NCBI GenBank assembly: GCA_021813555.1
Contig: JAKAKG010000203.1
Coordinates: forward strand, 3,507 to 67,506
From: Acidobacteriota bacterium
GTDB lineage: Bacteria > Acidobacteriota > UBA4820 > DSQY01
Direction: 5' to 3'
Length of the DNA stretch: 64,000 nucleotides
In this document: in pieces, positions 1,555-58,769 of the stretch
Layout of the letters: each line of letters begins with the position of its first letter
How positions within the stretch are numbered: position 1 is the stretch's first letter
The notes under the pieces: generated by a model
What the model was told of the DNA's origin: nothing
The model's input: only the letters and a program-made list of their open reading frames with translations
Database searches by the model: none
Position numbers and translations under genes: made by a program

Positions 1555-2242
1555 GAGTCAGGGACTGGACGAGGGCAGGGACGCCCTTAGGTGACCAGTC
1601 GGCCGCCCCTTGGGCGGTCCAGGCGATGCGGCCCTCCTTGTCCAAGACGACGGTCGTGGGTATGGCACTCACTCCCAGCGCGTTGGCCAGGCTCGCCGAG
1701 TCCCAGTACACGGTGAATGTGCCTGGAATCTTGGCCAGGAACGGTCCCACGGGGGCCGCGCTGTCGTCCACGGAGACGGGGAGGACGGCCCAAGAGGACT
1801 CGCCGCTGGAAGCCGCGGCGAATTTGGCGAATTCGGGAAACTCGGCCCGGCACGGCGGACACCAAGTGGCCCAGAAATGGAGGACGACCACCTTGCCCTT
1901 GAGCGACTTGAGCGAGACGGAGCGGGAGCCGTCGCCCACCACCTGGACGCTCAGATCGGGGACGCTGGCCCTGCTCGACACCGCCAGGACGCCGCGGACC
2001 GGCGGGCTGGTCCGCATAAGCCCCGATTTGACCAGGTATCCGATCAGCAGGACGGCTGCCGCCGCCATGAGAATCCAGAAAAGCTTGCTTGACGATGGGG
2101 GGGAAGCGGGACGGGATGTCGTAACAGCCATGTATGCCTCCAGACCTGGAATTATCATCCCCCGGTGCTCTTCAGGCAAGGCCCGAAGGGCTTCGTTCGC
2201 GTCCGTTCGGGCGCTTCCGTTCCTTGAGCCCGAGGCGCTCAT
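1547..2242 (-). CDS. Membrane-anchored thioredoxin-fold thiol:disulfide oxidoreductase (TlpA/ResA-like)
   Basis: 231-aa ORF with an N-terminal TM helix and a WATWCPPC thioredoxin active-site motif. Confidence 0.85.
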   Translation of the reverse strand: MSASGSRNGSARTDANEALRALPEEHRGMIIPGLEAYMAVTTSRPASPPSSSKLFWILMAAAAVLLIGYLVKSGLMRTSPPVRGVLAVSSRASVPDLSVQVVGDGSRSVSLKSLKGKVVVLHFWATWCPPCRAEFPEFAKFAAASSGESSWAVLPVSVDDSAAPVGPFLAKIPGTFTVYWDSASLANALGVSAIPTTVVLDKEGRIAWTAQGAADWSPKGVPALVQSLTHE

Positions 2243-18754: not shown

Positions 18755-18761
18755 GCAAGAA

Positions 18762-18790
18762 GTGAGGAGTGAGGAGTGAGGAGTGAGGAG
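18762..18790. repeat. Tandem heptamer array (GTGAGGA)x4 between fpr stop and the GTG start of the recombinase gene
   Basis: Read directly from the sequence: gtgaggagtgaggagtgaggagtgaggag. The third unit supplies the GTG start of the downstream ORF. Confidence 0.9.
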
Positions 18791-34361: not shown

Positions 34362-34370
34362 GGGTCCGGG

Positions 34371-34394
34371 ATGAGGAGATGAGGAGATGAGGGG
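34371..34394. repeat. Tandem octamer array (ATGAGGAG)x3
   Basis: Read directly from the sequence: atgaggagatgaggagatgagggg, 10 nt after the SLT stop. Confidence 0.9.
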
Positions 34395-35578: not shown

Positions 35579-36041
35579 CCACGTCGTAGGCCACCACCTC
35601 TTCGCTGATGTAGTTGCCGGGCGTCGAGGAGCGCTCGTAGACTTCGCTGAACCGGTATCCCTGGGACTCGAAGAGGACCTTCCCGTCGCGGCTGGCCAGA
35701 CGGACTTTCGCCGTCATGGTCACCTGGTACCGGTTGGCGCGGCCCGCCGAGTCGTAGGAAAGAGGCGCCACGCCGTAGCCCGTGATAGCTCCCGTAAGGA
35801 CCGCGTCAGCACCCTCCTTGGAAGACTGAACCTTCACGCGGGCGCGCTGGGCCAGCTCGCGGGTCACGGCCTCGGTAACCCGCTGGTCGAGCTGCAGGAC
35901 CGGCACTTGCCGCTCGAAGGGCAGGACGGCCACCACCTTCACCGACGGCGGCAGGGCGCCTCCCGTACCGAGCAAGTGATAGCCGCAAGCGGTGAAGAGA
36001 AGCATCACGGCCAGAGATGCGACGGCGAATCGAGCCCTCAT
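35514..36041 (-). CDS. lptE: LPS-assembly lipoprotein LptE (RlpB) family
   Basis: Lipobox (LLFTACG), 175 aa, and a position immediately downstream of leuS, the conserved leuS-lptE arrangement. Confidence 0.7.
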   Translation of the reverse strand: MRARFAVASLAVMLLFTACGYHLLGTGGALPPSVKVVAVLPFERQVPVLQLDQRVTEAVTRELAQRARVKVQSSKEGADAVLTGAITGYGVAPLSYDSAGRANRYQVTMTAKVRLASRDGKVLFESQGYRFSEVYERSSTPGNYISEEVVAYDVVARDFARALVATIMEANPGVP

Positions 36042-36067
36042 CTCCTCATCTCCTCATCTCGTCATCC
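36039..36067. repeat. Tandem octamer array (GATGAGGA)x4 on minus strand filling the leuS-lptE intergenic gap and supplying the lptE ATG
   Basis: The reverse complement reads gatgacgagatgaggagatgaggagatgagggc. The last unit contains the lptE start codon. Confidence 0.9.
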
Positions 36068-41491: not shown

Positions 41492-42461
41492 GCAGGTGCC
41501 TCTCGACGATGGCCCAGGGCGGCCCGGGGTCCCCCTTCAAGGCCAAATCCAGCTCGAAGAGGGCACCCAAGGTTTTCCGGACGCGCGCCTCGGGCCACTT
41601 GGACGCGACGCCGAGGAGCTTCTGGGCCGGGTACGGATGGTTGAACCCCAGGCTCCTGAAGGGAATGTCCCGCCGCTCCGCCCCTCGCGCTTCCAGACCG
41701 TGCATGAGCAACAGGGACCTGAGCTGCTTGGCGAGCATGCCCACGAAGAGGAGGGGCACCGAATCGGGATCCTGGGCGATACGCTGCAGGAGGTCGAGAA
41801 AGGGCCTCACCTCGCCCTTGAGGAAAGCATCCTGCAAATCCCATTGCTGAGGCGTCCCGCCGGCGCCTAAAAGGGCCTCCACGTCCTCCGCTTCAAGGCG
41901 CTTCTCCTCGTTCCTGTATAGGCACAAAAGGTCCAAGGCGGAGACGAGCCTCCCCACGTCTCCGCAGGACCATTCCTCCAGGGCCGTAGCGGCCGCCGGG
42001 GCGATGGAGAAGCCTTCGGCGCGCAGGCGCTTGGCCACGTACTCGCGGCCGCCGCGAGGCGTGCACGATCGGGTGGGAACCTTGTCCATGAGGGCTTTCC
42101 AACGCGCCGGGACCTTCTTATCGGAGAGGTCCCCTACCACTTCGACGAGCAGGGCGGTGGATGTCGCGGGGTTGTCCAGATATCGGCCGAGGGCCTTGAT
42201 CAGATCGTCGGAGGCCGATTCGGCCTGCCTGAGGCGAACCACCTGGCGCTCGCTCCACATGGGAAGGGTATTGAGCTCGACGCCGAGCTGCCCCGGATCG
42301 AGACCCGCCGCCGAAAGATTGGTCGCTCCGTCCTCACCGCCCCACCGCTCGGCCCATCCGCGGGAGACTTCATCCAGGAAGCGGCCGTCCTCCGCCCATA
42401 TGAGAAGGTTCTGCGGATAGCTCCCCGCCCCCGCCTTCTCCTTCTTCTCCTCACTCCGCAC
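41472..42461 (-). CDS. holA: DNA polymerase III delta subunit-like (HolA)
   Basis: 329 aa with a delta-subunit-like pattern. The GTG start lies inside the heptamer array. The assignment is moderate. Confidence 0.6.
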   Translation of the reverse strand: MRSEEKKEKAGAGSYPQNLLIWAEDGRFLDEVSRGWAERWGGEDGATNLSAAGLDPGQLGVELNTLPMWSERQVVRLRQAESASDDLIKALGRYLDNPATSTALLVEVVGDLSDKKVPARWKALMDKVPTRSCTPRGGREYVAKRLRAEGFSIAPAAATALEEWSCGDVGRLVSALDLLCLYRNEEKRLEAEDVEALLGAGGTPQQWDLQDAFLKGEVRPFLDLLQRIAQDPDSVPLLFVGMLAKQLRSLLLMHGLEARGAERRDIPFRSLGFNHPYPAQKLLGVASKWPEARVRKTLGALFELDLALKGDPGPPWAIVERHLLRVMGK

Positions 42462-42538
42462 TCCTCGCTCCTTTTTCTTTTCCCTTTTCCCTTTTCACTT
42501 CTCACTTTTCACTTTTTACTTCTTACTTTTCACTCCTC
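42462..42538. repeat. Heptamer array (~11 units GTGARAA / GGGAAAA / GAGTGAG on minus strand) between oppC stop and holA start
   Basis: The reverse complement reads ggaggagtgaaaagtaagaagtaaaaagtgaaaagtgagaagtgaaaagggaaaagggaaaagaaaaaggagcgaggag. The oppC TGA stop and the holA GTG start both lie within repeat units. Confidence 0.9.
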
Positions 42539-49217: not shown

Positions 49218-49325
49218 TGGAACGTGACCGGGTATCAGGCGACGGGGCCATCTTGAGGCGTTGATCACACGATCACATGATCCGTTGATTACCTGATCAC
49301 GTTGACCTTTCCGAAAGGGAACCCG

Positions 49326-50486: not shown

Positions 50487-51299
50487 ATGTCGATGGACTA
50501 TTTCCAATACCTGCGCAAAGAGCGCATGCCGCACATCTGGTGCCCCGGCTGCGGCCACGGCACCATCATGAAATCCATCCTGCGGGCCCTGGACAAGCTC
50601 AAGTGGGCCAAGGATGACGTGGTGGTGGTTTCTGGAATCGGCTGCAGCAGCAGAACACCGGGCTACCTGGACTTCAACACCCTTCACACGACCCACGGCC
50701 GCGCCCTCTCCTTCGCCCAGGGTGTCAAAGTGGCCAACCCCAACCTCAAGGTGATCGTCATCTCCGGAGACGGAGACGCCATGGCCATCGGAGGCAACCA
50801 CTTCATTCACGCCTGCCGGCGCAACATGGACATCACCCTCATCGTCTTCAACAACAACATCTACGGGATGACCGGCGGACAGGCTTCCCCCACCACCTTC
50901 ACGGGCTCCAAGGGCACCACCGCCCCCTACGGCGCCATCGAGCAGCCCTTCGACGTGTGCAACATGGCCCAGGCCTCGGGCGCCACCTACGTGGCCCGCG
51001 CCCTGGACATCGACGCCGTCGCCATGGACCGCGTCATCCTGTCAGCCCTGCAGAACAAGGGATTCTCCGTCGTGGACGCCTGGTCTCAGTGCACCACCTA
51101 CTTCGGCCGCCAGAACAAATGGGGCGACGCCTCCGAGATGATGGACCGGTACAAGGAAATGACCTACAACGTCCGCCTCGCCGAGAAAATGAGCCCCGAA
51201 GAGAAAGCCGGGAAATACCCCGTGGGGATGCTCTTCCAGACCTCCCGCCCGGAATGGTGCGAGGAGTACGGCAAGCTGATTGAGAGAGTGAGCAAGTGA
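50487..51299 (+). CDS. korB: 2-oxoacid:ferredoxin oxidoreductase beta subunit (TPP-binding)
   Basis: Motifs CPGCGHG, GIGCSS and GDGD in the TPP-binding region. Confidence 0.9.
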   Translation: MSMDYFQYLRKERMPHIWCPGCGHGTIMKSILRALDKLKWAKDDVVVVSGIGCSSRTPGYLDFNTLHTTHGRALSFAQGVKVANPNLKVIVISGDGDAMAIGGNHFIHACRRNMDITLIVFNNNIYGMTGGQASPTTFTGSKGTTAPYGAIEQPFDVCNMAQASGATYVARALDIDAVAMDRVILSALQNKGFSVVDAWSQCTTYFGRQNKWGDASEMMDRYKEMTYNVRLAEKMSPEEKAGKYPVGMLFQTSRPEWCEEYGKLIERVSK

Positions 51300-51415
51300 G
51301 GAAGTGAGGAGTGAGGAGTAAATAGTGAAAAGTGAAAAGTAAAAAGCGAGCCCTCAACAGCGGGCCGCGTTCCTTCCCACTCTTCACTTTTCACTTTTAA
51401 CTTTTCTTTTAAAGG
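51296..51415. repeat. Inverted heptamer arrays (GTGAGGA x3, GTGAAAA x2, GTAAAAA on plus; TCTTCAC, TTTTCAC, TTTTAAC downstream) forming a long imperfect hairpin with T-rich 3' arm, between korB and korC
   Basis: Read directly from the sequence. The korB TGA stop lies within the first heptamer, and the downstream arm is the reverse complement of the GTGAAAA units. Confidence 0.85.
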
Positions 51416-51448
51416 CAAACGCGCCATGAAATTCCCAGGGGATCTGAC

Positions 51449-52018
51449 ATGAGCAAACGCTACGAAATACGATTGGCGGGCCTCGGCGGACAGGGCCTGG
51501 TGCTGGCGGGCGTGATCCTGGCCGAGGCGGCCTCCATTTTCGAAAACAAGAACGCCGTTCAGAGCCAGTCTTACGGCCCTGAATCTCGCGGCGGTGCCAG
51601 CAAGAGCGAAGTCATCATCTCGGATGAGGAAATCGATTACCCCAAAGCGACGCACATCGACCTCCTCCTGTGCCTAACCGATGCGGCCGCCGAAAAGTAT
51701 TTGAAGGATTGCCCGGAAACGGCCCTCGTCATCGCCGATTCGGACCTGGTACCCTCGGCCATCCCGGAGAAATACCGCTCCGTCAAAGCCCCCATCACGC
51801 GTTTGGCCCGCGAGACGGTGGGCAAGGAGTTCGTCACCAACATCGTGGCCCTGGGCCTCATCCAGGAACTGACGGGCATCGTGGGTCTTCCTGCCCTGGA
51901 GAAAGCCGTCCTGGGCCGGGTGCCCAAGGGAACCGAGGATCTGAACAAGCGCGCCTTGGAAGTGGGCCGGGAAGCGGCCCATGAATACGGCGCCCACATC
52001 CTCTCAGCGAGGGGATAG
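51449..52018 (+). CDS. korC: 2-oxoacid:ferredoxin oxidoreductase gamma subunit
   Basis: 189 aa with a Pyr:Fd oxidoreductase gamma pattern (GLGGQGLVLAG). Confidence 0.85.
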   Translation: MSKRYEIRLAGLGGQGLVLAGVILAEAASIFENKNAVQSQSYGPESRGGASKSEVIISDEEIDYPKATHIDLLLCLTDAAAEKYLKDCPETALVIADSDLVPSAIPEKYRSVKAPITRLARETVGKEFVTNIVALGLIQELTGIVGLPALEKAVLGRVPKGTEDLNKRALEVGREAAHEYGAHILSARG

Positions 52019-52022
52019 CCGC

Positions 52023-52532
52023 ATGGCCGAGCGAACCTTCACCATCTTCAAACCGGACGCCCTTCGCAAGGGCGTCCAGGGGCACATGCTCCAGCGCCTT
52101 CTGGACGAGGGTTTCGGCGTACGGGGCCTCAAGATGGCCCGCCTGTCCCGGCTTCAGGCCGAGGCCTTTTACGCCGTCCACCGGGAACGCCCCTTCTTTC
52201 CCGAACTCGTGGACTTCATGACCTCCGGCCCCGTGATCGTCATCAGCCTTGAACGAGACAACGCCGTGGCTCACCTGCGGGCCGTCATGGGGCCGACCGA
52301 CTCGGCCAAGGCGCCCAAGGACACGATCCGCGGGCAGTTTGGGACGGACATCCAGTGCAACGCCATCCATGGGTCGGACAGCGTCGAAAACGGCCTCATC
52401 GAAACGGCCTTTTTCTTTTCGGGCGCCGAAACGGTGGGAGACGCCGTTGCGCCGTCCGCGGCCAAGAAAGCGGTCGCGGCTGCGCCCGCGTGGCAGGCCA
52501 ATCCTCTGGGCCGCCCTCCGAAAGGCCGCTGA
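52023..52532 (+). CDS. ndk: Nucleoside diphosphate kinase with ~30-aa Ala/Pro-rich C-terminal extension
   Basis: ATG at 52023 (MAERTFTIFKPDALRKG) with the catalytic His region NAIHGSDS. The extension is AETVGDAVAPSAAKKAVAAAPAWQANPLGRPPKGR. Confidence 0.9.
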   Translation: MAERTFTIFKPDALRKGVQGHMLQRLLDEGFGVRGLKMARLSRLQAEAFYAVHRERPFFPELVDFMTSGPVIVISLERDNAVAHLRAVMGPTDSAKAPKDTIRGQFGTDIQCNAIHGSDSVENGLIETAFFFSGAETVGDAVAPSAAKKAVAAAPAWQANPLGRPPKGR

Positions 52533-52545
52533 GGCCGCGCTCCCC

Positions 52546-53442
52546 ATGGACCGGCCCGTCGCCCCGGGGCACTTCTCCGGCCCGCTCAACCGTCACGGCG
52601 ACGGCGCGTTCACCGTCAGCGTGGGCGGTATCGCCGTTCAGTTCTCTGGGCTTTCCGAGGCGCTGCTCCCGGCGGCCCAGGAGCGGTATTCTCCCTTCCT
52701 CTCCGATGAACCGCCTCTGCACACGGTCGTCCTTTATGACGGGCCGGAGCACTACCTCGACATGGCCGAGGACGGCTTCATGCGCGTGGAGGAGCGCGAC
52801 TTCCCTGAAGGACGGATCATGGTGTCCCATGATTTCGCCGCCTTCTGGCCCGCGGGAGCCTCCGCGGGAACGCTCCGGGTGAGCGTCGCCTTCCCGCTCT
52901 CGAAGGTTCTGTCCGCCATGGAAAACTACCTGCGCTGGTGCGTGGCCGATCTGGCCATCGAGCGCGGCGGGTTCGTCCTGCACAGTGCGGGCCTGGTGCT
53001 GGAGGGGAAGGCCTACGTCTTCTTCGGGCATTCGGGCGCGGGCAAGAGCACGGCCACGACCCTCTCGCTGGAGGGGCGGGGCGCCCTTGCCCTCTCCGAC
53101 GATCTCGTCCTGCTCCTGCGCGAGGGAGACCGCTTCCTGGCGGCCGCCACCCCCTTTCAGGGAAGTATGGCCCAGCGCGTCAAGGAGAAGGGGCTCTGCC
53201 CCCTGGCAGGCCTCTTTCACCTCCGCCAATCGGCCGAAGTCGGGACTCTTCCCCTTGCCCGGGCCGCCGCCGTGGGTATGCTCCTCTCCTGCTGTCCCTT
53301 CGTCGCCGATCCCGGCCGGAGATCGGAGTATCTCCTCCCCATCGTGGAGGATCTGTGCCGGGCCGTTCCCGTGCGGGAGCTGCTTTTCAGGAAGGATCCG
53401 TCCTTCTGGGACGTTGTGCTCAAAAGGGAGGATCAGCCGTGA
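52546..53442 (+). CDS. HPr-kinase-related P-loop protein (HprK C-terminal-like fold; RiPP-associated kinase candidate)
   Basis: The ATG at 52546 lies 14 nt after the ndk stop. It has a Walker A (GHSGAGKST) followed by a SDDLV motif, as in the HprK C-domain and lasso-peptide kinases. It lacks the HprK N-domain and the genomic context is not that of hprK. Confidence 0.7.
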   Translation: MDRPVAPGHFSGPLNRHGDGAFTVSVGGIAVQFSGLSEALLPAAQERYSPFLSDEPPLHTVVLYDGPEHYLDMAEDGFMRVEERDFPEGRIMVSHDFAAFWPAGASAGTLRVSVAFPLSKVLSAMENYLRWCVADLAIERGGFVLHSAGLVLEGKAYVFFGHSGAGKSTATTLSLEGRGALALSDDLVLLLREGDRFLAAATPFQGSMAQRVKEKGLCPLAGLFHLRQSAEVGTLPLARAAAVGMLLSCCPFVADPGRRSEYLLPIVEDLCRAVPVRELLFRKDPSFWDVVLKREDQP

Positions 53443-53711
53443 GCGAAGAGACTCTGCCGAAAAGAAACCCCGACGTATCCTGGAGGACCATCGAGGGCCA
53501 AGCCGTCCTCATTCATAACCGCCTGGGCGAGATCCAGGTCTTGAATGACCTGGGAACTTACATATGGGAACACCTGGAGCTCGGGCCCGAGATCTTGGCC
53601 AGGAATATAGCGCAGGAGCACGAAGTTTCAGTGCCAGACGCCCAGCGCGACGTTGAAGAATTCATGCAGGCGCTGCGTGGCTCAGGAGCTCTGGCCGATG
53701 GAACAGACTGA
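53439..53711 (+). CDS. PqqD-family protein (RiPP precursor recognition element-like)
   Basis: The GTG start overlaps the upstream stop (GTGA) and is preceded by GGGAGG. The 90-aa product is SWRTIEGQAVLIHNRLGEIQVLNDLGTYIWEHLE...DVEEFMQAL, typical of PqqD. Confidence 0.75.
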   Translation: MSEETLPKRNPDVSWRTIEGQAVLIHNRLGEIQVLNDLGTYIWEHLELGPEILARNIAQEHEVSVPDAQRDVEEFMQALRGSGALADGTD

Positions 53712-54765
53712 GCGAGGAACACCCCTGCAGCGGTTGCACGACAGCGCCTTCCGGGCGCGGCATCCCCTGTTTGCGTCGATTGAGCTCACGTACACCTGCA
53801 ACCTGGCCTGCTACTTCTGCTACAACCCCGTCCAGCGCAAGAGCCAGAAGCGGACGCAGCCGGCCCCGGAGAGAGCCGAGTCTCCTTTGACCTTCGAGGA
53901 GATCGTGGGCGTCCTGGACCAATTGAAAGAGATGGGCGTCCTCTACCTCACCCTCACGGGCGGCGAGCCGCTCATGCATCCCCGGTTCTGGGATATCGCT
54001 CAGGCTGCCAAGGACCGGGCCTTTGCCGTTCGTATATTCACCAACGGCGCGGCCCTCACTCAAAACGTGGTGGACCGGCTCGCGACTCTCATGCCCTTTT
54101 GCCTGGAGATGTCCATCCACGGAGCCAAGGCCGAGACCGCCGAGGCCCTCACGCAGGTGAAAGGGTCCTTCCAGCGCCAGATGAACGCGCTCTCCCTTCT
54201 TCAAGGATCGGGCCTCCGGGTCTTTCTCAAGTGCACCGTGACGCGCCTGGTAGAGAACGAACTGGCCGACATCAAGGCGATGGCCGACGGTTTCGGGTTC
54301 CCCCTTTTCTTCGACCCCGTCCTCACGATCTCGGACGACCGGCAGTTTTATCCCATGGAGCTGCGGGCCTCGGACGAGGCCATCGCCTGGCTCTACAAAA
54401 CCTCGGGCTTGAATCTGGGCAACTCGCCCTTCGAGCGGGAGCCCGGCGATTTTAATTGCAGCGTGGGCACGGGAACCCTCCACATCACCCCCTTTGGAGA
54501 GATTCACCCTTGCGTCCAGTGGAAGCAGTCCGTGGGCAGCGTGCGGGAAAAGACCCTTCAGGAGATTTGGGCCACCTCGCCCCTCCTGATGGCGGCCAGG
54601 GAGGCTAACCTGAAGAGCGCGGCCATGCTCAAGGACACCGTGAAGGAGCACGCCTTTTGCGCCCATTGCCCAGGACTGTCTCAGTTGAAATGCGGCGACC
54701 CCCTCCGTCCCGACGAACAGTACGTGAGGGTGGCGAACATCCGATCCAAGCTAGCGGAGACGTAA
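53698..54765 (+). CDS. Radical SAM enzyme with C-terminal SPASM domain (peptide-modifying maturase candidate)
   Basis: The ATG at 53698 overlaps the pqqD-like gene by 14 nt. It has a CNLACYFC radical-SAM cluster motif and C-terminal Cys-rich SPASM-like segments (FNCSVGTG...HPCVQW...CAHCPGLSQLKCGDP). Confidence 0.85.
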   Translation: MEQTERGTPLQRLHDSAFRARHPLFASIELTYTCNLACYFCYNPVQRKSQKRTQPAPERAESPLTFEEIVGVLDQLKEMGVLYLTLTGGEPLMHPRFWDIAQAAKDRAFAVRIFTNGAALTQNVVDRLATLMPFCLEMSIHGAKAETAEALTQVKGSFQRQMNALSLLQGSGLRVFLKCTVTRLVENELADIKAMADGFGFPLFFDPVLTISDDRQFYPMELRASDEAIAWLYKTSGLNLGNSPFEREPGDFNCSVGTGTLHITPFGEIHPCVQWKQSVGSVREKTLQEIWATSPLLMAAREANLKSAAMLKDTVKEHAFCAHCPGLSQLKCGDPLRPDEQYVRVANIRSKLAET

Positions 54766-54889
54766 CCGGTTCAGCGGTTTCTTGTCTTGCCTCAGCGCCG
54801 CGGGCGCTTGGGACCAACGGGAACGATTGGGACTTGACAGGCGGCACGAGATGTCGCAATTTACCTTCGGGAGAAGGAGAGGTGGCAGA

Positions 54890-55018
54890 ATGAAAAAGCC
54901 CTACGAGAAACCCGCGGTGATTTACAAGGAGCGGATTGAGGCCAGAGCTTCGAGTTGCGGGGTAAGCCCGAGCAAGGCTGGAACGGGCACCGGTTGCTCT
55001 GCCCCCTTCGTGAGCTAG
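54890..55018 (+). CDS. 42-aa candidate RiPP precursor peptide MKKPYEKPAVIYKERIEARASSCGVSPSKAGTGTGCSAPFVS
   Basis: A small ORF with a strong SD (GGAGAAGGAGAGG) 7 nt upstream of the ATG. It lies between the rSAM/SPASM gene and the C25 peptidase gene. It is embedded in the track's 78-aa ORF 54782..55018. The product has a charged leader and a Ser/Gly/Thr-rich core with two Cys and a C-terminal Ser. Confidence 0.6.
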   Translation: MKKPYEKPAVIYKERIEARASSCGVSPSKAGTGTGCSAPFVS

Positions 55019-55044
55019 CCGGTTCGGGGCTATCTCTTTTGCAG

Positions 55045-58000
55045 GTGGCACGGATCCAGGGTTTCAACCGCCGCCAGGCATTTTGGCACATCCTCCTTGG
55101 GTTGGCGGCTTTTGTCATAAGTGTTCACCCTCCTGCCGCCTCCTCCGGGGGGCGTCAGGTCTTCCATTTCAGCTGGTCCCCCGCCCCGGGCCAGGCGGCC
55201 TTATGGGCCGAACCTTCCCCTGAGGGGCTCCCGCCGCGAACGCCCTCGGTTTCCATTAAAGTCGCCCTGCCGGCCAACGCCCAGAAAGCATCCCTTCGCG
55301 TGGTGACCGCCCACTGGCAGGCGGTCCCCCCTGGCCATTGGGTCCCCGCCACGGGCGAGGCCGCCGTTCTCGGCCGGCGCGGGGTGTGGCACGGTATCCC
55401 CTACCAGGAAATCATCGTGCATCCCGTCCGGCGAGGTCCCTCCGGGGAAGTGGAGATCTTGTCCACCCTCGTAGGGACCCTTGAGGTGCCCGGCTTGGCC
55501 GGCTCCCTTGATCCTCCCCTGCCGCCCGGGATCCGCGCGCGAACGGACGCCAGCCTCTTCCTCAACCCCACGGGCGCCCTTGCCTTCCGGCACGCCTCCG
55601 AGACGGGCCGAAGCATTTCCAGAACCACCGTCTCCACCTTTCCGCCCGGCGCCAGCCCCGTGCGAGTGGAGGTCGCGCAGGACGGCATTTACCGGTTGGA
55701 TTACACCTATCTCACCTCCCACGGGTTAAGCCCCGAAACCCTGGTGGAGACCATCCACCTGGAATGCGGGGGGGTGGAACTTCCCATCTGGATCGAGGGC
55801 CCATCCTCGGGGCCTCTTTCTCCGTCCAGCGCCGTGGTGTTCTACGGCCAGAAGCTCGCCATCACGAACCGGCCCATGTTCGATGGCGGCGACTTCTCGG
55901 ATACCAACGTGTACTGGCTGTACTCCAACGGCCAGCGGGGGCTTCGGATGGCCACCGCCCCCGCGGCGCCCACGGGCCGCTTCCCTTCCGTGGCACAGTT
56001 TGCGGCCACGGTCCACTTGGAGGTGAACACCTACCTGGACTCACTGGACCACTTCAGGCCTGACGGGGACAACTGGTTCTGGGCCCCCATCCTGGCCGCC
56101 CCCGCTGGGTCGAGCACCTCCAGGGATTTCAGCGTGAACCTGCCCCACCCCTCCGGAGCGGGCCTCTCGGCCACTGCTGTCCTGGCGGGCCTCAACGACG
56201 GCCAACACGGCATCACCCTGGCGCTCAACGGTGCCTCGCCCAGCGCGGGACCCGATCCCGGTCCCTGGCAGGGCAAAGCCATCTCGGCCCAGACGTGCAG
56301 CTTCAGCTCGGGCTTGGCCAACGGAGCCAACACCGTCACTCTGACGTTGCCGGGGGTCGCCGGACAGCCCGATTTCCAGCTTCTGGACTACTTCGATTTC
56401 ACCTATTCGAGGACCTTGGATTCGGACTCGGGCACTCTCCTCATCACGGATGTTGAGGCTTCCGCTCAGTACGCATGCCCGGGGCACCAGACGGCACCAT
56501 ACATTCTCGATCTCTCCGCCTCGGACCCGGCGACGGGGCTCAAGCGCCCCATCCTGCTCACGGGAGCCACGTTCTCCGCGGGCACGGCTACCTTCGAAAT
56601 GCCTGCAAATCCTGGCGTGACGCGGCGCCTCGTGGCCCTATCCAGCGCGCCGCTCCTGCCAAGCGCCGCTTATGTGGCGGCTGCACCCGCGATTCCGGAC
56701 CCCGCCAACCCCGCGGACATGGTCATCATCACCCATCCCGACTTTCATCCCGCGGGAGCCGATGCCGTGTGGCAAGCCTACCTGGCGAGGCGGTCGGAGG
56801 CCATGACGGTAGTAGCGGTGGATGTGGAAAGCATCTACAACGCCTATTCCTACGGCCTCATGGACCCAACAGCGATTCGGAGCTACCTGGCCGCCGCCGC
56901 GGCAGCATGGGGCCGGGCTCCCAAGTACGTCCTCCTCGTGGGGGACGCATCCTATGACTACAAAAACTACACGGGGACGCCTGGCAACACCAGCCGCGTC
57001 CCTACCATGATGTTTGAAGACGCGGGGGATTCCACCTACATGGGCCGGTATCCTTCCGATGCCTGGTTCGCCGACGTGAACGGAGACGGCTACCCAGATT
57101 CGGCGGTGGGCCGCCTTCCCGCACGGTCCTATGAAGAGCTGGCGGGCATGCTCACCAAGATCATGGCCTATGAGGATCAGGCCCTGGCCGGCACCTGGTA
57201 CAAGAGCGGCCTCTTCGTGGCCGACACGTGGACCCAAACCTGGGAGCAGGTCTTCGAACAAGCCAACACCCTCCTGCAAACCACCTACATGGCACCGCCC
57301 TGGAGCGGCACCCACCTGTTTTTTCACGACGCTCCTTATAACGGCACCGACGCCAACGCCTTCGCCTCCGCCTTGAGGGCGGCATGGCCGGGCGCCGCGC
57401 TCATGCACTACAGCGGACACAGCGGCATAAGCAGCCTCGGCAACCAGTATGCTTTCTTCACCTCGTACCCCTCCCGGAATTGCACCAGCGGTACGTGCAG
57501 CGATTCGGACGTAGATCTGCTCCCCCCAGTGGACCTGACTCCCTCGGCCCCCTCAGCCCCTCTGCCCTTCATCGTGAGCAGCAGTTGCTACAACTCAGCT
57601 TTCGACGAGGTGAGCACCGACGCCCTCATGGAAGTTCTGTTAGCCAGGGCGGACCGGGGTACCATCGGGTCCTGCGGATTCTCCACTATCGCCTACCCCG
57701 ACGAGGAGCACACCTTCGCCAACGCATTCTTCGAGCAGGCCTTCGGCCCGTCCAAAACTAGACCGGTGGGGCCGCTGGTGGATGCGGGGCGCTTCTCTCT
57801 GCCCTCCTCCGATGCCCGGTCGGTCATGGGGAACATCCTCATGGGCGATCCTTCCGTCTCCCTGCGCCTGCCCGCCCCCGATCCTCCGCCGGCCTTCGCC
57901 GCTTCGCCCGCGGACGGAGCCGTGGTTCTGTCCTGGGGCTCTCCGGCGGCTCCCGTCTCGAGATTTGAACTCTACAGGTCCGGCGACGGAGGCAAAACTT

Positions 58001-58689
58001 GGGCGGCGGTGGCGAGTCCAGGGCCCTCGGACCGTGGATATAACGATGGCGGCCTGGTGAACGGCGCGGAGTACACATACTACGCCACGAGTCTGGACAC
58101 GGGCGGCTTCGAAGGCCCGCCGAGCCTTGCGGCCACCGCCGTGCCCGAACCCGGCATCTGCACCGTGCTGTGCCAGGCGCAGGCGCCCACCTCGGGCTCT
58201 CCAGGGACATCCGTGCCCTTCCAGGCTTCGGCCACCAGCACGAGCTGTGCTCAAAGTTTGGCCTATGACTGGGATTTCGGAGACGGCAGCCTTCGCGCGA
58301 GCATCCCGGCCCCCACCCATGTCTATGCCTCGGCTGGCGCCTATACCTGGACGTTCACCGCTTCGGCGGATTCGGCCTCCTGCATGAAAAGCGGGACTAT
58401 CGTGGTGGCCGTCCCCCCCCACGTCACGCGCGTGCAGAAGGCCGCGAGCCCCTTCCGCATCATCATCACGGGGACGAACCTGCATGCCGACGCGAGCGTC
58501 TATGTTGGCGGCCAGCGGTGGGCCACGGTCAAAATCGTCCCGGAAACCAAGGTCGTCCTCAAGGGCACCGGCCTCAAGGCGCTCTTCCCCGCGGGGGTCT
58601 TCGTGCCCGTGCGCCTGGTGAACGGCGACGGCGGCGAGACGACGGTGAGCTACAACCGCACAGGCAACCAGTGGCGCCAGGGCCCGTAA
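55045..58689 (+). CDS. Secreted peptidase C25 (gingipain-like cysteine protease) domain protein with C-terminal Ig/PKD-like beta domains
   Basis: A GTG start at 55045 gives the signal peptide RRQAFWHILLGLAAFVISVHPPAASS. C25-like features are YVLLVGDASYD, HYSGHSG (putative catalytic His) and SSSCYNSAFD (putative catalytic Cys). It is ~1214 aa. Confidence 0.7.
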   Translation: MARIQGFNRRQAFWHILLGLAAFVISVHPPAASSGGRQVFHFSWSPAPGQAALWAEPSPEGLPPRTPSVSIKVALPANAQKASLRVVTAHWQAVPPGHWVPATGEAAVLGRRGVWHGIPYQEIIVHPVRRGPSGEVEILSTLVGTLEVPGLAGSLDPPLPPGIRARTDASLFLNPTGALAFRHASETGRSISRTTVSTFPPGASPVRVEVAQDGIYRLDYTYLTSHGLSPETLVETIHLECGGVELPIWIEGPSSGPLSPSSAVVFYGQKLAITNRPMFDGGDFSDTNVYWLYSNGQRGLRMATAPAAPTGRFPSVAQFAATVHLEVNTYLDSLDHFRPDGDNWFWAPILAAPAGSSTSRDFSVNLPHPSGAGLSATAVLAGLNDGQHGITLALNGASPSAGPDPGPWQGKAISAQTCSFSSGLANGANTVTLTLPGVAGQPDFQLLDYFDFTYSRTLDSDSGTLLITDVEASAQYACPGHQTAPYILDLSASDPATGLKRPILLTGATFSAGTATFEMPANPGVTRRLVALSSAPLLPSAAYVAAAPAIPDPANPADMVIITHPDFHPAGADAVWQAYLARRSEAMTVVAVDVESIYNAYSYGLMDPTAIRSYLAAAAAAWGRAPKYVLLVGDASYDYKNYTGTPGNTSRVPTMMFEDAGDSTYMGRYPSDAWFADVNGDGYPDSAVGRLPARSYEELAGMLTKIMAYEDQALAGTWYKSGLFVADTWTQTWEQVFEQANTLLQTTYMAPPWSGTHLFFHDAPYNGTDANAFASALRAAWPGAALMHYSGHSGISSLGNQYAFFTSYPSRNCTSGTCSDSDVDLLPPVDLTPSAPSAPLPFIVSSSCYNSAFDEVSTDALMEVLLARADRGTIGSCGFSTIAYPDEEHTFANAFFEQAFGPSKTRPVGPLVDAGRFSLPSSDARSVMGNILMGDPSVSLRLPAPDPPPAFAASPADGAVVLSWGSPAAPVSRFELYRSGDGGKTWAAVASPGPSDRGYNDGGLVNGAEYTYYATSLDTGGFEGPPSLAATAVPEPGICTVLCQAQAPTSGSPGTSVPFQASATSTSCAQSLAYDWDFGDGSLRASIPAPTHVYASAGAYTWTFTASADSASCMKSGTIVVAVPPHVTRVQKAASPFRIIITGTNLHADASVYVGGQRWATVKIVPETKVVLKGTGLKALFPAGVFVPVRLVNGDGGETTVSYNRTGNQWRQGP

Positions 58690-58769
58690 CCCTCTTCCCT
58701 CCACCGGCCACACGTTCTTTCCTTCGCGCATGGGGATCCGTATAGTGGAACCGGGCATGAAGGGGAGAG

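Follow-up and report, generated by a model that had tools for sequence, protein, structure and literature searches.

A slippage-born heptamer palindrome proposed at the korB-korC junction of an Acidobacteriota operon, and the polarity of its counterparts in other genomes and viral contigs

We analyzed the junction between korB and korC, two genes of a 2-oxoglutarate:ferredoxin oxidoreductase operon, in a 64,000-nt stretch of the genome of an Acidobacteriota bacterium (assembly GCA_021813555.1, contig JAKAKG010000203.1, positions 3,507 to 67,506 of the forward strand), here called the window. The two genes are separated by a spacer of 149 nt (korC starts at 51449), most of which is taken up by an element made of a purine-rich heptamer array, a GC-rich hairpin, and an inverted heptamer array. 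On balance, we favor the reading that this kor element is a lineage-specific repeat palindrome of about 130 nt that was born by slippage, that belongs to a known class of heptameric repeats, and whose action, if it has any, is that of an intercistronic stem-loop. We observed the anatomy of the element, its absence from relatives, its sister arrays in the window, and palindromes of like polarity in many other phyla and in viral contigs, and these observations are laid out first.

The repeat units of the element have a constant AGTGA core, a variable RR position, and a 7-nt period (Table 1). The 5' array begins within the last korB codons, and every one of its G-rich units holds a TGA and a Shine-Dalgarno-like GGAG. 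The preliminary description of this DNA had placed the korB stop codon in the first repeat; the stop is indeed inside the array, but its TGA (51297-51299) belongs to the second unit, AGTGAGGA (51295-51302). In the A-rich part, GTGAAAA is read at 51325-51331 and 51332-51338 and GTAAAAA at 51339-51345, while the 3' array, read on the minus strand, consists of purine-rich units of the GTGARRA type. The TCTTCAC, TTTTCAC, and TTTTAAC units of this second arm occupy 51381-51401, with about 35 nt between the arms. Tandem Repeats Finder (TRF) reports arrays of period 7 or 8 at 51287-51346 and 51378-51406 (6.4 copies in the first arm, 4.1 in the second), and by a repeat finder the inverted arms extend over 24-33 nt with 73-88% complementarity, in several registers; the feature coordinates of the preliminary description were all recovered. 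Allowing at most three mismatches, the 16-mer GTGAAAAGTGAAAAGT has 13 matches in the 64-kb window where 0.13 would be expected, and none of the shuffles gave as many.

Exact KorB and KorC proteins are present on contigs of two metagenome-assembled genomes (MAGs) at NCBI (GCA_027349505.1 and GCA_027388815.1) and of several ENA/Logan assemblies, and the spacer is identical in at least nine conspecific assemblies that are 99.75-99.92% identical to the window. Samples that carry the organism have assemblies such as ERZ27237554, ERZ27237563, SRR26671184, and SRR13189623. The identity of the element in independent assemblies made from different samples with different assemblers rules out an assembly artefact. 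The nearest named relatives are annotated as Acidobacteriota and conserve the gene order sucCD-korDABC-ndk-ScmC-PqqD-radical SAM ... C25 peptidase. A look at the korB-korC junction in relatives, which had been proposed as a check, revealed that the heptamer spacer is missing in all seven related lineages, six of which have tight junctions and one an unrelated spacer. The tight spacers measure -4 nt with an ATGA overlap (L136, KorB identity 91%), 16 nt (L005, 91%), 12 nt (L006, 87%), 1 nt (L007, 85%), 1 nt (L137, 81%), and 2 nt (L138, 79%); the remaining lineage (L008, 85%) has a GC-rich, unrelated spacer of 120 nt without heptamers. The earlier view that the spacer interrupts an otherwise compact operon is borne out by these lengths, mostly -4 to 16 nt, and the sequence comparison indicates that the element is derived, a lineage-specific gain of about 130 nt at an ancestrally tight junction. 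The junction reads GCC-AAG-TGA-GGAG-CGG...ATG in L006 and AGC-AAG-TGA-GCCGGGGGAACGAGAG-ATG in L005, and AAGTGAGGAG of the L006 junction is the first unit of the kor array. By this comparison, AAGTGAGG, which is the earliest complete unit of the array, is the ancestral stop/Shine-Dalgarno junction. The Shine-Dalgarno region of korC was kept 3' of the roughly 130 inserted nucleotides, and its GGGGA is homologous to that of the short L005 spacer.

Four further arrays of the same family lie in the window (Table 1). All five array loci are in co-directional spacers, have a purine-rich sense strand, and start between -10 and +9 nt from the upstream stop; in the array between oppC and holA, the oppC TGA sits in the first unit. 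A second, inverted arm is found at kor alone, the other four being single arms without centers. The window, then, holds the features of a heptamer family: at least three head-to-tail 7-nt units, dispersed copies above chance, positions near upstream 3' ends, and an inverted pair. AGTGAGG can be read as a GTGA start/stop overlap plus GGAG, and GATGAGGA as an ATGA overlap plus GGAG. In the array at 36036-36066 on the minus strand, the spacing from one GAGGAG to the ATG that follows is 8 nt, and each ATG of AGATGAGG is in turn succeeded by a TGA overlapping the ATG after it, so that the array is a chain of 3-codon mini-ORFs (open reading frames) that runs up to the true start of the downstream gene. 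No such arrays were found in the syntenic stretches of two relatives, L137 (20.8 kb) and L138 (13.8 kb). The corresponding 20.8 kb of L008 hold a single array of another unit, GATTTGG x5 on the sense strand (1790-1840, minus strand), which implies that in related lineages other operon junctions are occupied by other unit families. This L008 array begins at the oppB stop and has a perfect GC hairpin of 9 bp behind it; its unit is close to the Nostoc GGGGATT type.

Table 1. Features of the korB-korC junction and sister arrays, in window coordinates
Feature	Position	Strand	Basis and remarks
korB (2-oxoglutarate:ferredoxin oxidoreductase beta subunit)	50487..51299	+	ORF list; Pfam PF02775 TPP_enzyme_C
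5' array, G-rich part: AGTGAGCA, AGTGAGGA, AGTGAGG, AGTGAGG	51287..51316	+	sequence; TRF period 8, 4.0 copies
5' array, A-rich part: AGTAAAT, AGTGAAA, AGTGAAA, AGTAAAA, AG	51317..51346	+	sequence; TRF period 7
Central GC hairpin: GCGAGCCC / loop TCAACAGC / GGGCCGC, 7 bp, one bulge	51346..51368	.	folds; terminator scan
3' inverted array: TTCCCAC, TCTTCAC, TTTTCAC, TTTTAAC, TTTTCTT (+ strand letters)	51374..51408	-	TRF period 7, 4.1 copies; inverted repeats
Rest of spacer	51409..51448	+	mini-ORF and korC Shine-Dalgarno GGGGA (51438-51442)
korC (gamma subunit)	51449..52018	+	ORF list; Pfam PF01558 POR
AGTGAGG x4.3, perfect	18761..18790	+	TRF; begins 6 nt past TAG of upstream + gene
GATGAGGA x2.9	34370..34392	+	TRF; begins 8 nt past upstream stop, ends 13 nt before next ATG
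AGATGAGG x3.9 (sense strand)	36036..36066	-	TRF; begins 6 nt past upstream stop; downstream ATG in last unit
About 8 GTGAAAA/GTGAGAA/GTAAGAA units, then GGAGTGA-type	42447..42534	- (sense)	TRF; between oppC and holA

A scan of 185,579 species-representative genomes for three GTGARRA units returned at least 119 loci; the counts of sites in these genomes, here and below, are among the matches listed. The phyla include Planctomycetota, Acidobacteriota, Gemmatimonadota, Bacteroidota, Nitrospirota, Proteobacteria, Cyanobacteria, Chloroflexota, Bacillota, and others, and many loci have the layout of the kor copy, with an array, a short variable center, and an inverted array. An inverted partner lies within 200 nt at 38 of 125 sites, with 35 pairs purine-first (GTGARRA...TYYTCAC) and 3 pyrimidine-first. 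When exact two-unit words are required on both arms, 17 purine-first pairs, mainly of A-rich units, stand against 1. The purine-first hairpins have a mean fold z of -7. An independent test on viral contigs, done with two patterns of equal information content, gave the same polarity (32 loci purine-first, 1 pyrimidine-first). As placed by a crude ORF model, 39 sites are co-directional, 23 convergent, and 5 divergent, and for single arrays in co-directional spacers the sense strand is the purine-rich one in 18 cases versus 6.

The viral loci (L150-L181) include L150 at 1021-1067 and L151 at 1654-1708; some contigs carry two copies, and there are sets of related 4-5 kb contigs as well as several contigs of about 77 kb from one sample. 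In genomic loci of the Bacteroidota type (L089, L100, L032, and L118), the hairpin or array stands directly 5' of a TTTG...TAnnTTTG-like sequence, for example TTTTGTACCTTTGCA. This sequence resembles the Bacteroidetes promoter consensus, and the arrangement would suggest a terminator or insulator followed by a promoter. At L014, L015, L042, L045, L087, and L111, GTGARRA arrays often adjoin arrays of other units (GAGATAG-type, GGGTAAT, CTTTTGC, CTGTTCA, and CGTGTCTC), so array-rich genomes hold several unit families side by side.

How the element arose may be read from its units. We propose that the AGTGAGG and GATGAGGA arrays are tandem multiplications of a stop/start/Shine-Dalgarno coupling motif (GGAG plus GTGA or ATGA), a seed suggested by the fact that relatives keep this motif at the korB-korC junction (AAG-TGA-GGAG). 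Replication slippage would have amplified the coupling motif, G-to-A decay would have turned its products into GTGAAAA units, and the second arm would have come from inverted duplication or from import. A simple inverted duplication of one arm was considered and rejected, as the unit variants do not follow one another in mirror-image order in the two arms.

A different origin would be the transposition of a small non-autonomous mobile element into the korB-korC junction, with the arrays as its arms, similar to miniature inverted-repeat transposable elements (MITEs) or to the REPIN hairpins built from repetitive extragenic palindromes (REPs). The entire segment of about 130 nt, including a GC-rich center that is beyond slippage, is missing in all relatives compared, as expected of an insertion, and related copies occur in the sets of viral contigs. 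Although hairpin centers are not conserved between genomes, centers and flanks are homologous at different loci within some of them, namely in three copies of a Fibrobacteria contig (L036) and in two loci of one Saprospiraceae MAG (L021 and L080). Judging from these sequences, composite hairpin elements can disperse within some genomes. In the kor case, the center occurs just once in the 64-kb window at up to three mismatches, its exact 18-nt core was found only in kor-locus copies among the loci compared, no target-site duplication was seen, and the four other arrays of the window are single arms without centers. Eleven exact matches in a metagenome collection are chance hits, GC-rich and without arrays, in what is a weak test since the collection evidently lacks this species. 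Moreover, a first unit that corresponds to the ancestral stop/Shine-Dalgarno junction points to local growth. A conserved palindromic unit of the REP/REPIN kind was not found, copies sharing only the simple-repeat unit, and REP-associated tyrosine transposases (RAYTs) were not searched for. We therefore consider transposition of a mobile element unlikely. The earlier suggestion of a REP-like insertion holds in a broad sense, in that the element is a member of a dispersed repeat family.

We then turn to what a slippage-born palindrome would do in the kor mRNA. The predicted RNA fold of 51287-51413 (127 nt) has -42.6 kcal/mol with a z of -3.87, 1 of 200 shuffles being as good, which supports the long hairpin that the preliminary description had proposed; as DNA, the same segment gives -19.6 kcal/mol with a z of -2.69, and its A-rich 5' part pairs with the 3' array. 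Sense and antisense RNA do not differ in stability (-49.0 versus -49.6 kcal/mol). The RNA ensemble favors a distal register, in which the GUGAGGA units, including the korB stop, pair with UUUUCAC through G.U pairs (P = 0.82) and the GUGAAAA units are left looped out. When the first 25 nt or so are masked, as by a terminating ribosome, the fold is predicted to move to the proximal GUGAAAA register (-45.6 versus -58.5 kcal/mol in a 191-nt context).

In our proposal, the spacer would be transcribed within the kor mRNA and would fold as a long stem-loop rich in A-U and G-U pairs, with several registers. Such a stem-loop would abolish direct translational coupling between korB and korC, and it would probably be a decay barrier that protects korDAB from 3' exonucleases, or at most a leaky site of pausing or termination, like palindromes of the REP type. 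The central hairpin together with the T-rich array would halt antisense transcription. Any such action at the RNA level is one that we infer from the predicted folds, and the kor element may be close to neutral.

Does the hairpin terminate transcription on the sense strand? The preliminary description had noted a resemblance to an intrinsic terminator or attenuator, and in this alternative partial termination after korB would set the ratio of KorDAB to KorC (and Ndk). The hairpin is long and has a U-rich 3' arm, its stem is predicted to end just before UUUUAAAGG once the first 25 nt or so are masked and the proximal register forms, loci of the class concentrate at gene 3' ends and are scarce between divergent genes, and its strict A-rich-then-U-rich polarity is that of a bidirectional terminator. 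However, a consensus scan found no intrinsic terminator on the sense strand of the spacer and flagged the central hairpin on the minus strand, as a stem at 51366..51349 followed by CGCTTTTTAC. A hairpin/U-tail discriminant modeled on the d'Aubenton-Carafa formula is negative throughout on the plus strand, where the central hairpin scores -45 and the long stems range from -35 to -83; on the minus strand the central hairpin reaches +13. The tail of the GC hairpin is GUUCCUUCCC on the plus strand, and on the minus strand the hairpin is followed by TTTTTACTTTT. The resemblance to a sense-strand terminator or attenuator thus finds no backing in either analysis. A sigma-70 consensus scan of the spacer detected no promoter for korC. 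KorC is an obligatory subunit of 2-oxoacid:ferredoxin oxidoreductases and no promoter-like site precedes its gene, so strong termination would be harmful and efficient termination in the sense direction is unlikely. An Rfam search of 50800-51900 at a permissive E-value returned only sub-threshold look-alikes of eukaryotic miRNAs (the best at 25 bits versus a gathering score of 100), and the top model fits any long hairpin. Single arrays elsewhere among the matches listed also lack an adjacent GC hairpin above background: the inner 45 nt of 124 listed arrays fold no better than the outer ones (minimum free energy -7.24 versus -7.28, p 0.58; shuffle-normalized z -0.49 versus -0.41). With no excess of inner-side hairpins, the idea that the arrays are extended U-tracts of ordinary terminators was rejected as a general rule. 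Taken together, these results make a sense-strand terminator or attenuator at korB improbable.

A broader version of the terminator idea concerns the whole (GTGARRA)n-loop-(TYYTCAC)n design, which might be a hitherto unrecognized functional class across phyla and phages, perhaps "zipper" bidirectional terminators or transcription insulators in which slippage-prone heptamer arrays replace the A- and U-tracts. The strict purine-first polarity matches the layout of a bidirectional terminator (A-rich, stem, U-rich), yet single arrays show no excess of adjacent hairpins, and we would give this possibility only a small chance. If it were true, termination strength would be tunable by repeat number and pairing register, the 35:3 and 32:1 polarities would reflect selection, and the kor copy would be a translation-sensitive version with a predicted register shift when a ribosome is on the korB stop.

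At the other extreme, the element could be a neutral by-product of lineage-specific slippage, tolerated at gene 3' ends and without effect on kor expression. Relatives run the same operon without it, the korD-korA spacer is enlarged too and by a different repeat, and the best-studied analogue is one for which no function was found (PMC4692102). Neutrality does not, however, predict the purine-first polarity of the listed and viral loci, nor the sense bias of single arrays (18:6 among the matches listed; 4/4 in the window), and a 127-nt stem-loop of such predicted stability is unlikely to sit in an mRNA without an effect on decay or translation. We regard strict neutrality as possible, though clearly less probable than the stem-loop reading as a whole.

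The regularity of the units also raises the question whether they could be a multivalent platform for a protein, either an RNA binder of NAG-N4 or GGA (HutP-, CsrA-, S1-, or Csp-like) or a DNA binder of GTGA-N3. HutP recognizes NAG triplets with 4-nt spacers, and the constant AGTGA core, the variable RR, the fixed 7-nt period, and the sense-strand bias of the arrays would suit such a protein. S1, Csp, and CsrA have been proposed for TAACTGA arrays (PMC4679880), and a heptamer-binding factor has been proposed in Nostoc (bioRxiv 10.1101/2022.06.06.494920). Against this, no candidate protein came to light, although no search was aimed at one, the G-rich units are paired rather than exposed in the predicted RNA ensemble, a 7-bp period would put successive DNA sites on different faces of the helix, and the spread over unrelated phyla and phages speaks against a single dedicated factor. 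Such a platform seems very unlikely to us.

Several points weigh against a slippage-born, stem-loop-forming palindrome and should be considered together. The arms are not colinear inverted copies, with the G-rich units outside in the 5' arm and inside in the 3' arm, and slippage does not account for the GC-rich center. The fold z becomes weaker when flanks are included (-2.2 on the plus strand, -2.8 on the minus strand). No copy-number variation was seen among the conspecific assemblies, at least nine in number, of which active slippage might give some; their divergence of 0.1-0.25% is too low for this invariance to signal constraint. Finally, a seed at a Shine-Dalgarno junction cannot account for the GTGAAAA arrays of lineages such as Bacteroidota, which make little use of Shine-Dalgarno sequences, and the AGTGA core recurs in phyla with differing ribosome-binding signals.

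Other candidates were rejected. An integron attC site has an inverse core RYYYAAC on its 5' side and a core GTTRRRY on its 3' side and lies beside an integron integrase; here the order is reversed (GTGARRA first, TYYTCAC second), and no integrase is among the gene calls around the operon. Clustered regularly interspaced short palindromic repeats (CRISPR) were dismissed as there are no spacers between the repeats, and coding sequence was dismissed as the ORFs listed for the minus strand of the spacer are listing artefacts.

The identities of the operon genes come from precomputed Pfam matches for the same genes on public contigs, with korD, korA, korB, and korC as Fer4, POR_N, TPP_enzyme_C, and POR, followed by NDK; ndk lies 4 nt downstream of korC. 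Between the 3' array and korC there is a mini-ORF of 8 codons (MKFPGDLT*), with its ATG at 51426 and its TGA at 51450-51452, overlapping the korC ATG (ATGA). In the RNA ensemble, the AUG of korC and that of the mini-ORF are both predicted to be locally paired, and the start region of the mini-ORF is predicted to pair with that of korC. The mini-ORF could represent translational coupling restored after the insertion, or chance. The 8-mer GCAAACGC occurs twice, 38 nt apart, at 51415-51422 in the spacer and at 51453-51460 in korC codons 2-4, and the flanks of the two copies are loosely alike (GAAAT); part of the korC start may have been duplicated as the element arose. Further upstream, the korD-korA spacer (49218-49325) measures 108 nt compared with 10-12 nt in L006 and L008. 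Its repeat core (49263-49310) has a period of about 8 nt on GATCAC (GATCACAC GATCACAT GATCCGTT GATTACCT GATCACGT) and differs from the korB-korC unit. Downstream of kor-ndk, at 52060-58700 (L001 12060-18203), genes for a ScmC-like protein, PqqD, a radical SAM/SPASM protein, a 42-aa ORF, and a large C25 peptidase with PKD domains are found; the set from ScmC to the C25 peptidase is syntenic in every relative examined and looks like a peptide-modification cluster of the RiPP type (ribosomally synthesized and post-translationally modified peptides).

In summary, a central-metabolism operon whose junction is tight in most relatives tolerates a structured insertion of 130 nt between genes for subunits of one enzyme, and this makes the kor locus a natural test case for the effect of a palindrome on subunit balance. 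To what is known of heptameric repeats, the analysis adds a new unit family, a new phylum, the hypothesis of a coupling-junction seed, and a polarity rule seen in two independent collections. This rule constrains any model of the origin or function of heptamer arrays, and we see the main value in the cross-phylum polarity and the junction-seed idea rather than in the kor locus itself.

A literature search found no paper on bacterial GTGAAAA-, AGTGAGG-, or GTGARRA-type arrays, nor on such arrays in Acidobacteriota. According to Mrazek et al. 2007, as summarized in PMC4679880 and PMC4692102, heptamers are the most abundant class of long simple repeats in most bacterial genomes, and polymerase slippage over a contact of about 7 nt has been proposed as the cause. 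In Xanthomonas, 89-93% of the GGGAATC arrays are intergenic, their mean distance from the upstream ORF is 28 nt, just 7-8% of them lie between divergent ORFs, and each genome holds 70-75 pairs that are inverted and convergent, with no function found (Rehm et al. 2015, PMC4692102); GGGGA(T/C)T arrays of Nostoc occur within operons (pecE-pecF) (PMC4692102), and a preprint describes effects of heptamer repeats on recF and recO expression in Nostoc (bioRxiv 10.1101/2022.06.06.494920). Like these Xanthomonas and Nostoc repeats, the arrays described here consist of tandem 7-nt units with some conserved and some variable positions (PMC4692102), lie near the end of the upstream ORF, are rare between divergent genes, form convergent inverted pairs with stem-loop potential, and are found inside operons. 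Array lengths vary between related species in Xanthomonas and Nostoc, and the kor element is present or absent between species. Differences are that GTGARRA and GATGAGGA units are not rich in G-tracts and so cannot form a G-quadruplex, that they hold a stop codon and a Shine-Dalgarno motif, and that the phylum is another one; moreover, single GTGARRA arrays have a clear sense-strand bias, unlike those of Xanthomonas, where the strands are about equal.

The short tandemly repeated repetitive (STRR) sequences were defined in heterocystous cyanobacteria, with units such as CCCCAGT, TTGGTCA, and CAACAGT. Their heptamers in Calothrix PCC 7601 are cited in PMC4692102 (ref 39). As with STRR, families of different heptamers are dispersed here in intergenic regions and also within operons, and one Nostoc locus of our scan (L031) combines GTGCTGA and AGTGAGG arrays in a palindrome of the same design. 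TAACTGA arrays are known from marine Beggiatoaceae, Cyanobacteria, and Bacteroidetes, and post-transcriptional regulators have been proposed as their binders (MacGregor 2015, PMC4679880). They, too, are intergenic heptamer arrays scattered over unrelated phyla whose unit contains stop codons (PMC4679880). Unlike TAACTGA repeats, which are just 5' of start codons and comprise 169 direct sets and one indirect set, ours start from the upstream stop codon and, in the kor copy, form a palindrome.

The REPs of enterobacteria and the bacterial interspersed mosaic elements (BIMEs) stabilize upstream mRNA, for example at malE-malF. The kor element is likewise an extragenic palindrome that is dispersed, lies within an operon, and would be transcribed in the mRNA, and by analogy a differential stability of the cistrons is plausible; it differs from REPs, which have conserved units of about 35 nt and are linked to RAYTs, in being made of tandem heptamers with no palindromic unit common to its copies. 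With bidirectional terminators it shares the succession of A-rich array, GC hairpin, and U-rich array, and its antisense reading fits the terminator scan. Its sense reading does not, it sits between genes for subunits of one enzyme, and its arms span 35-60 nt instead of short homopolymer tracts. The kor element therefore represents a new unit, in a new phylum, of a known kind of heptameric repeat that has no accepted function.

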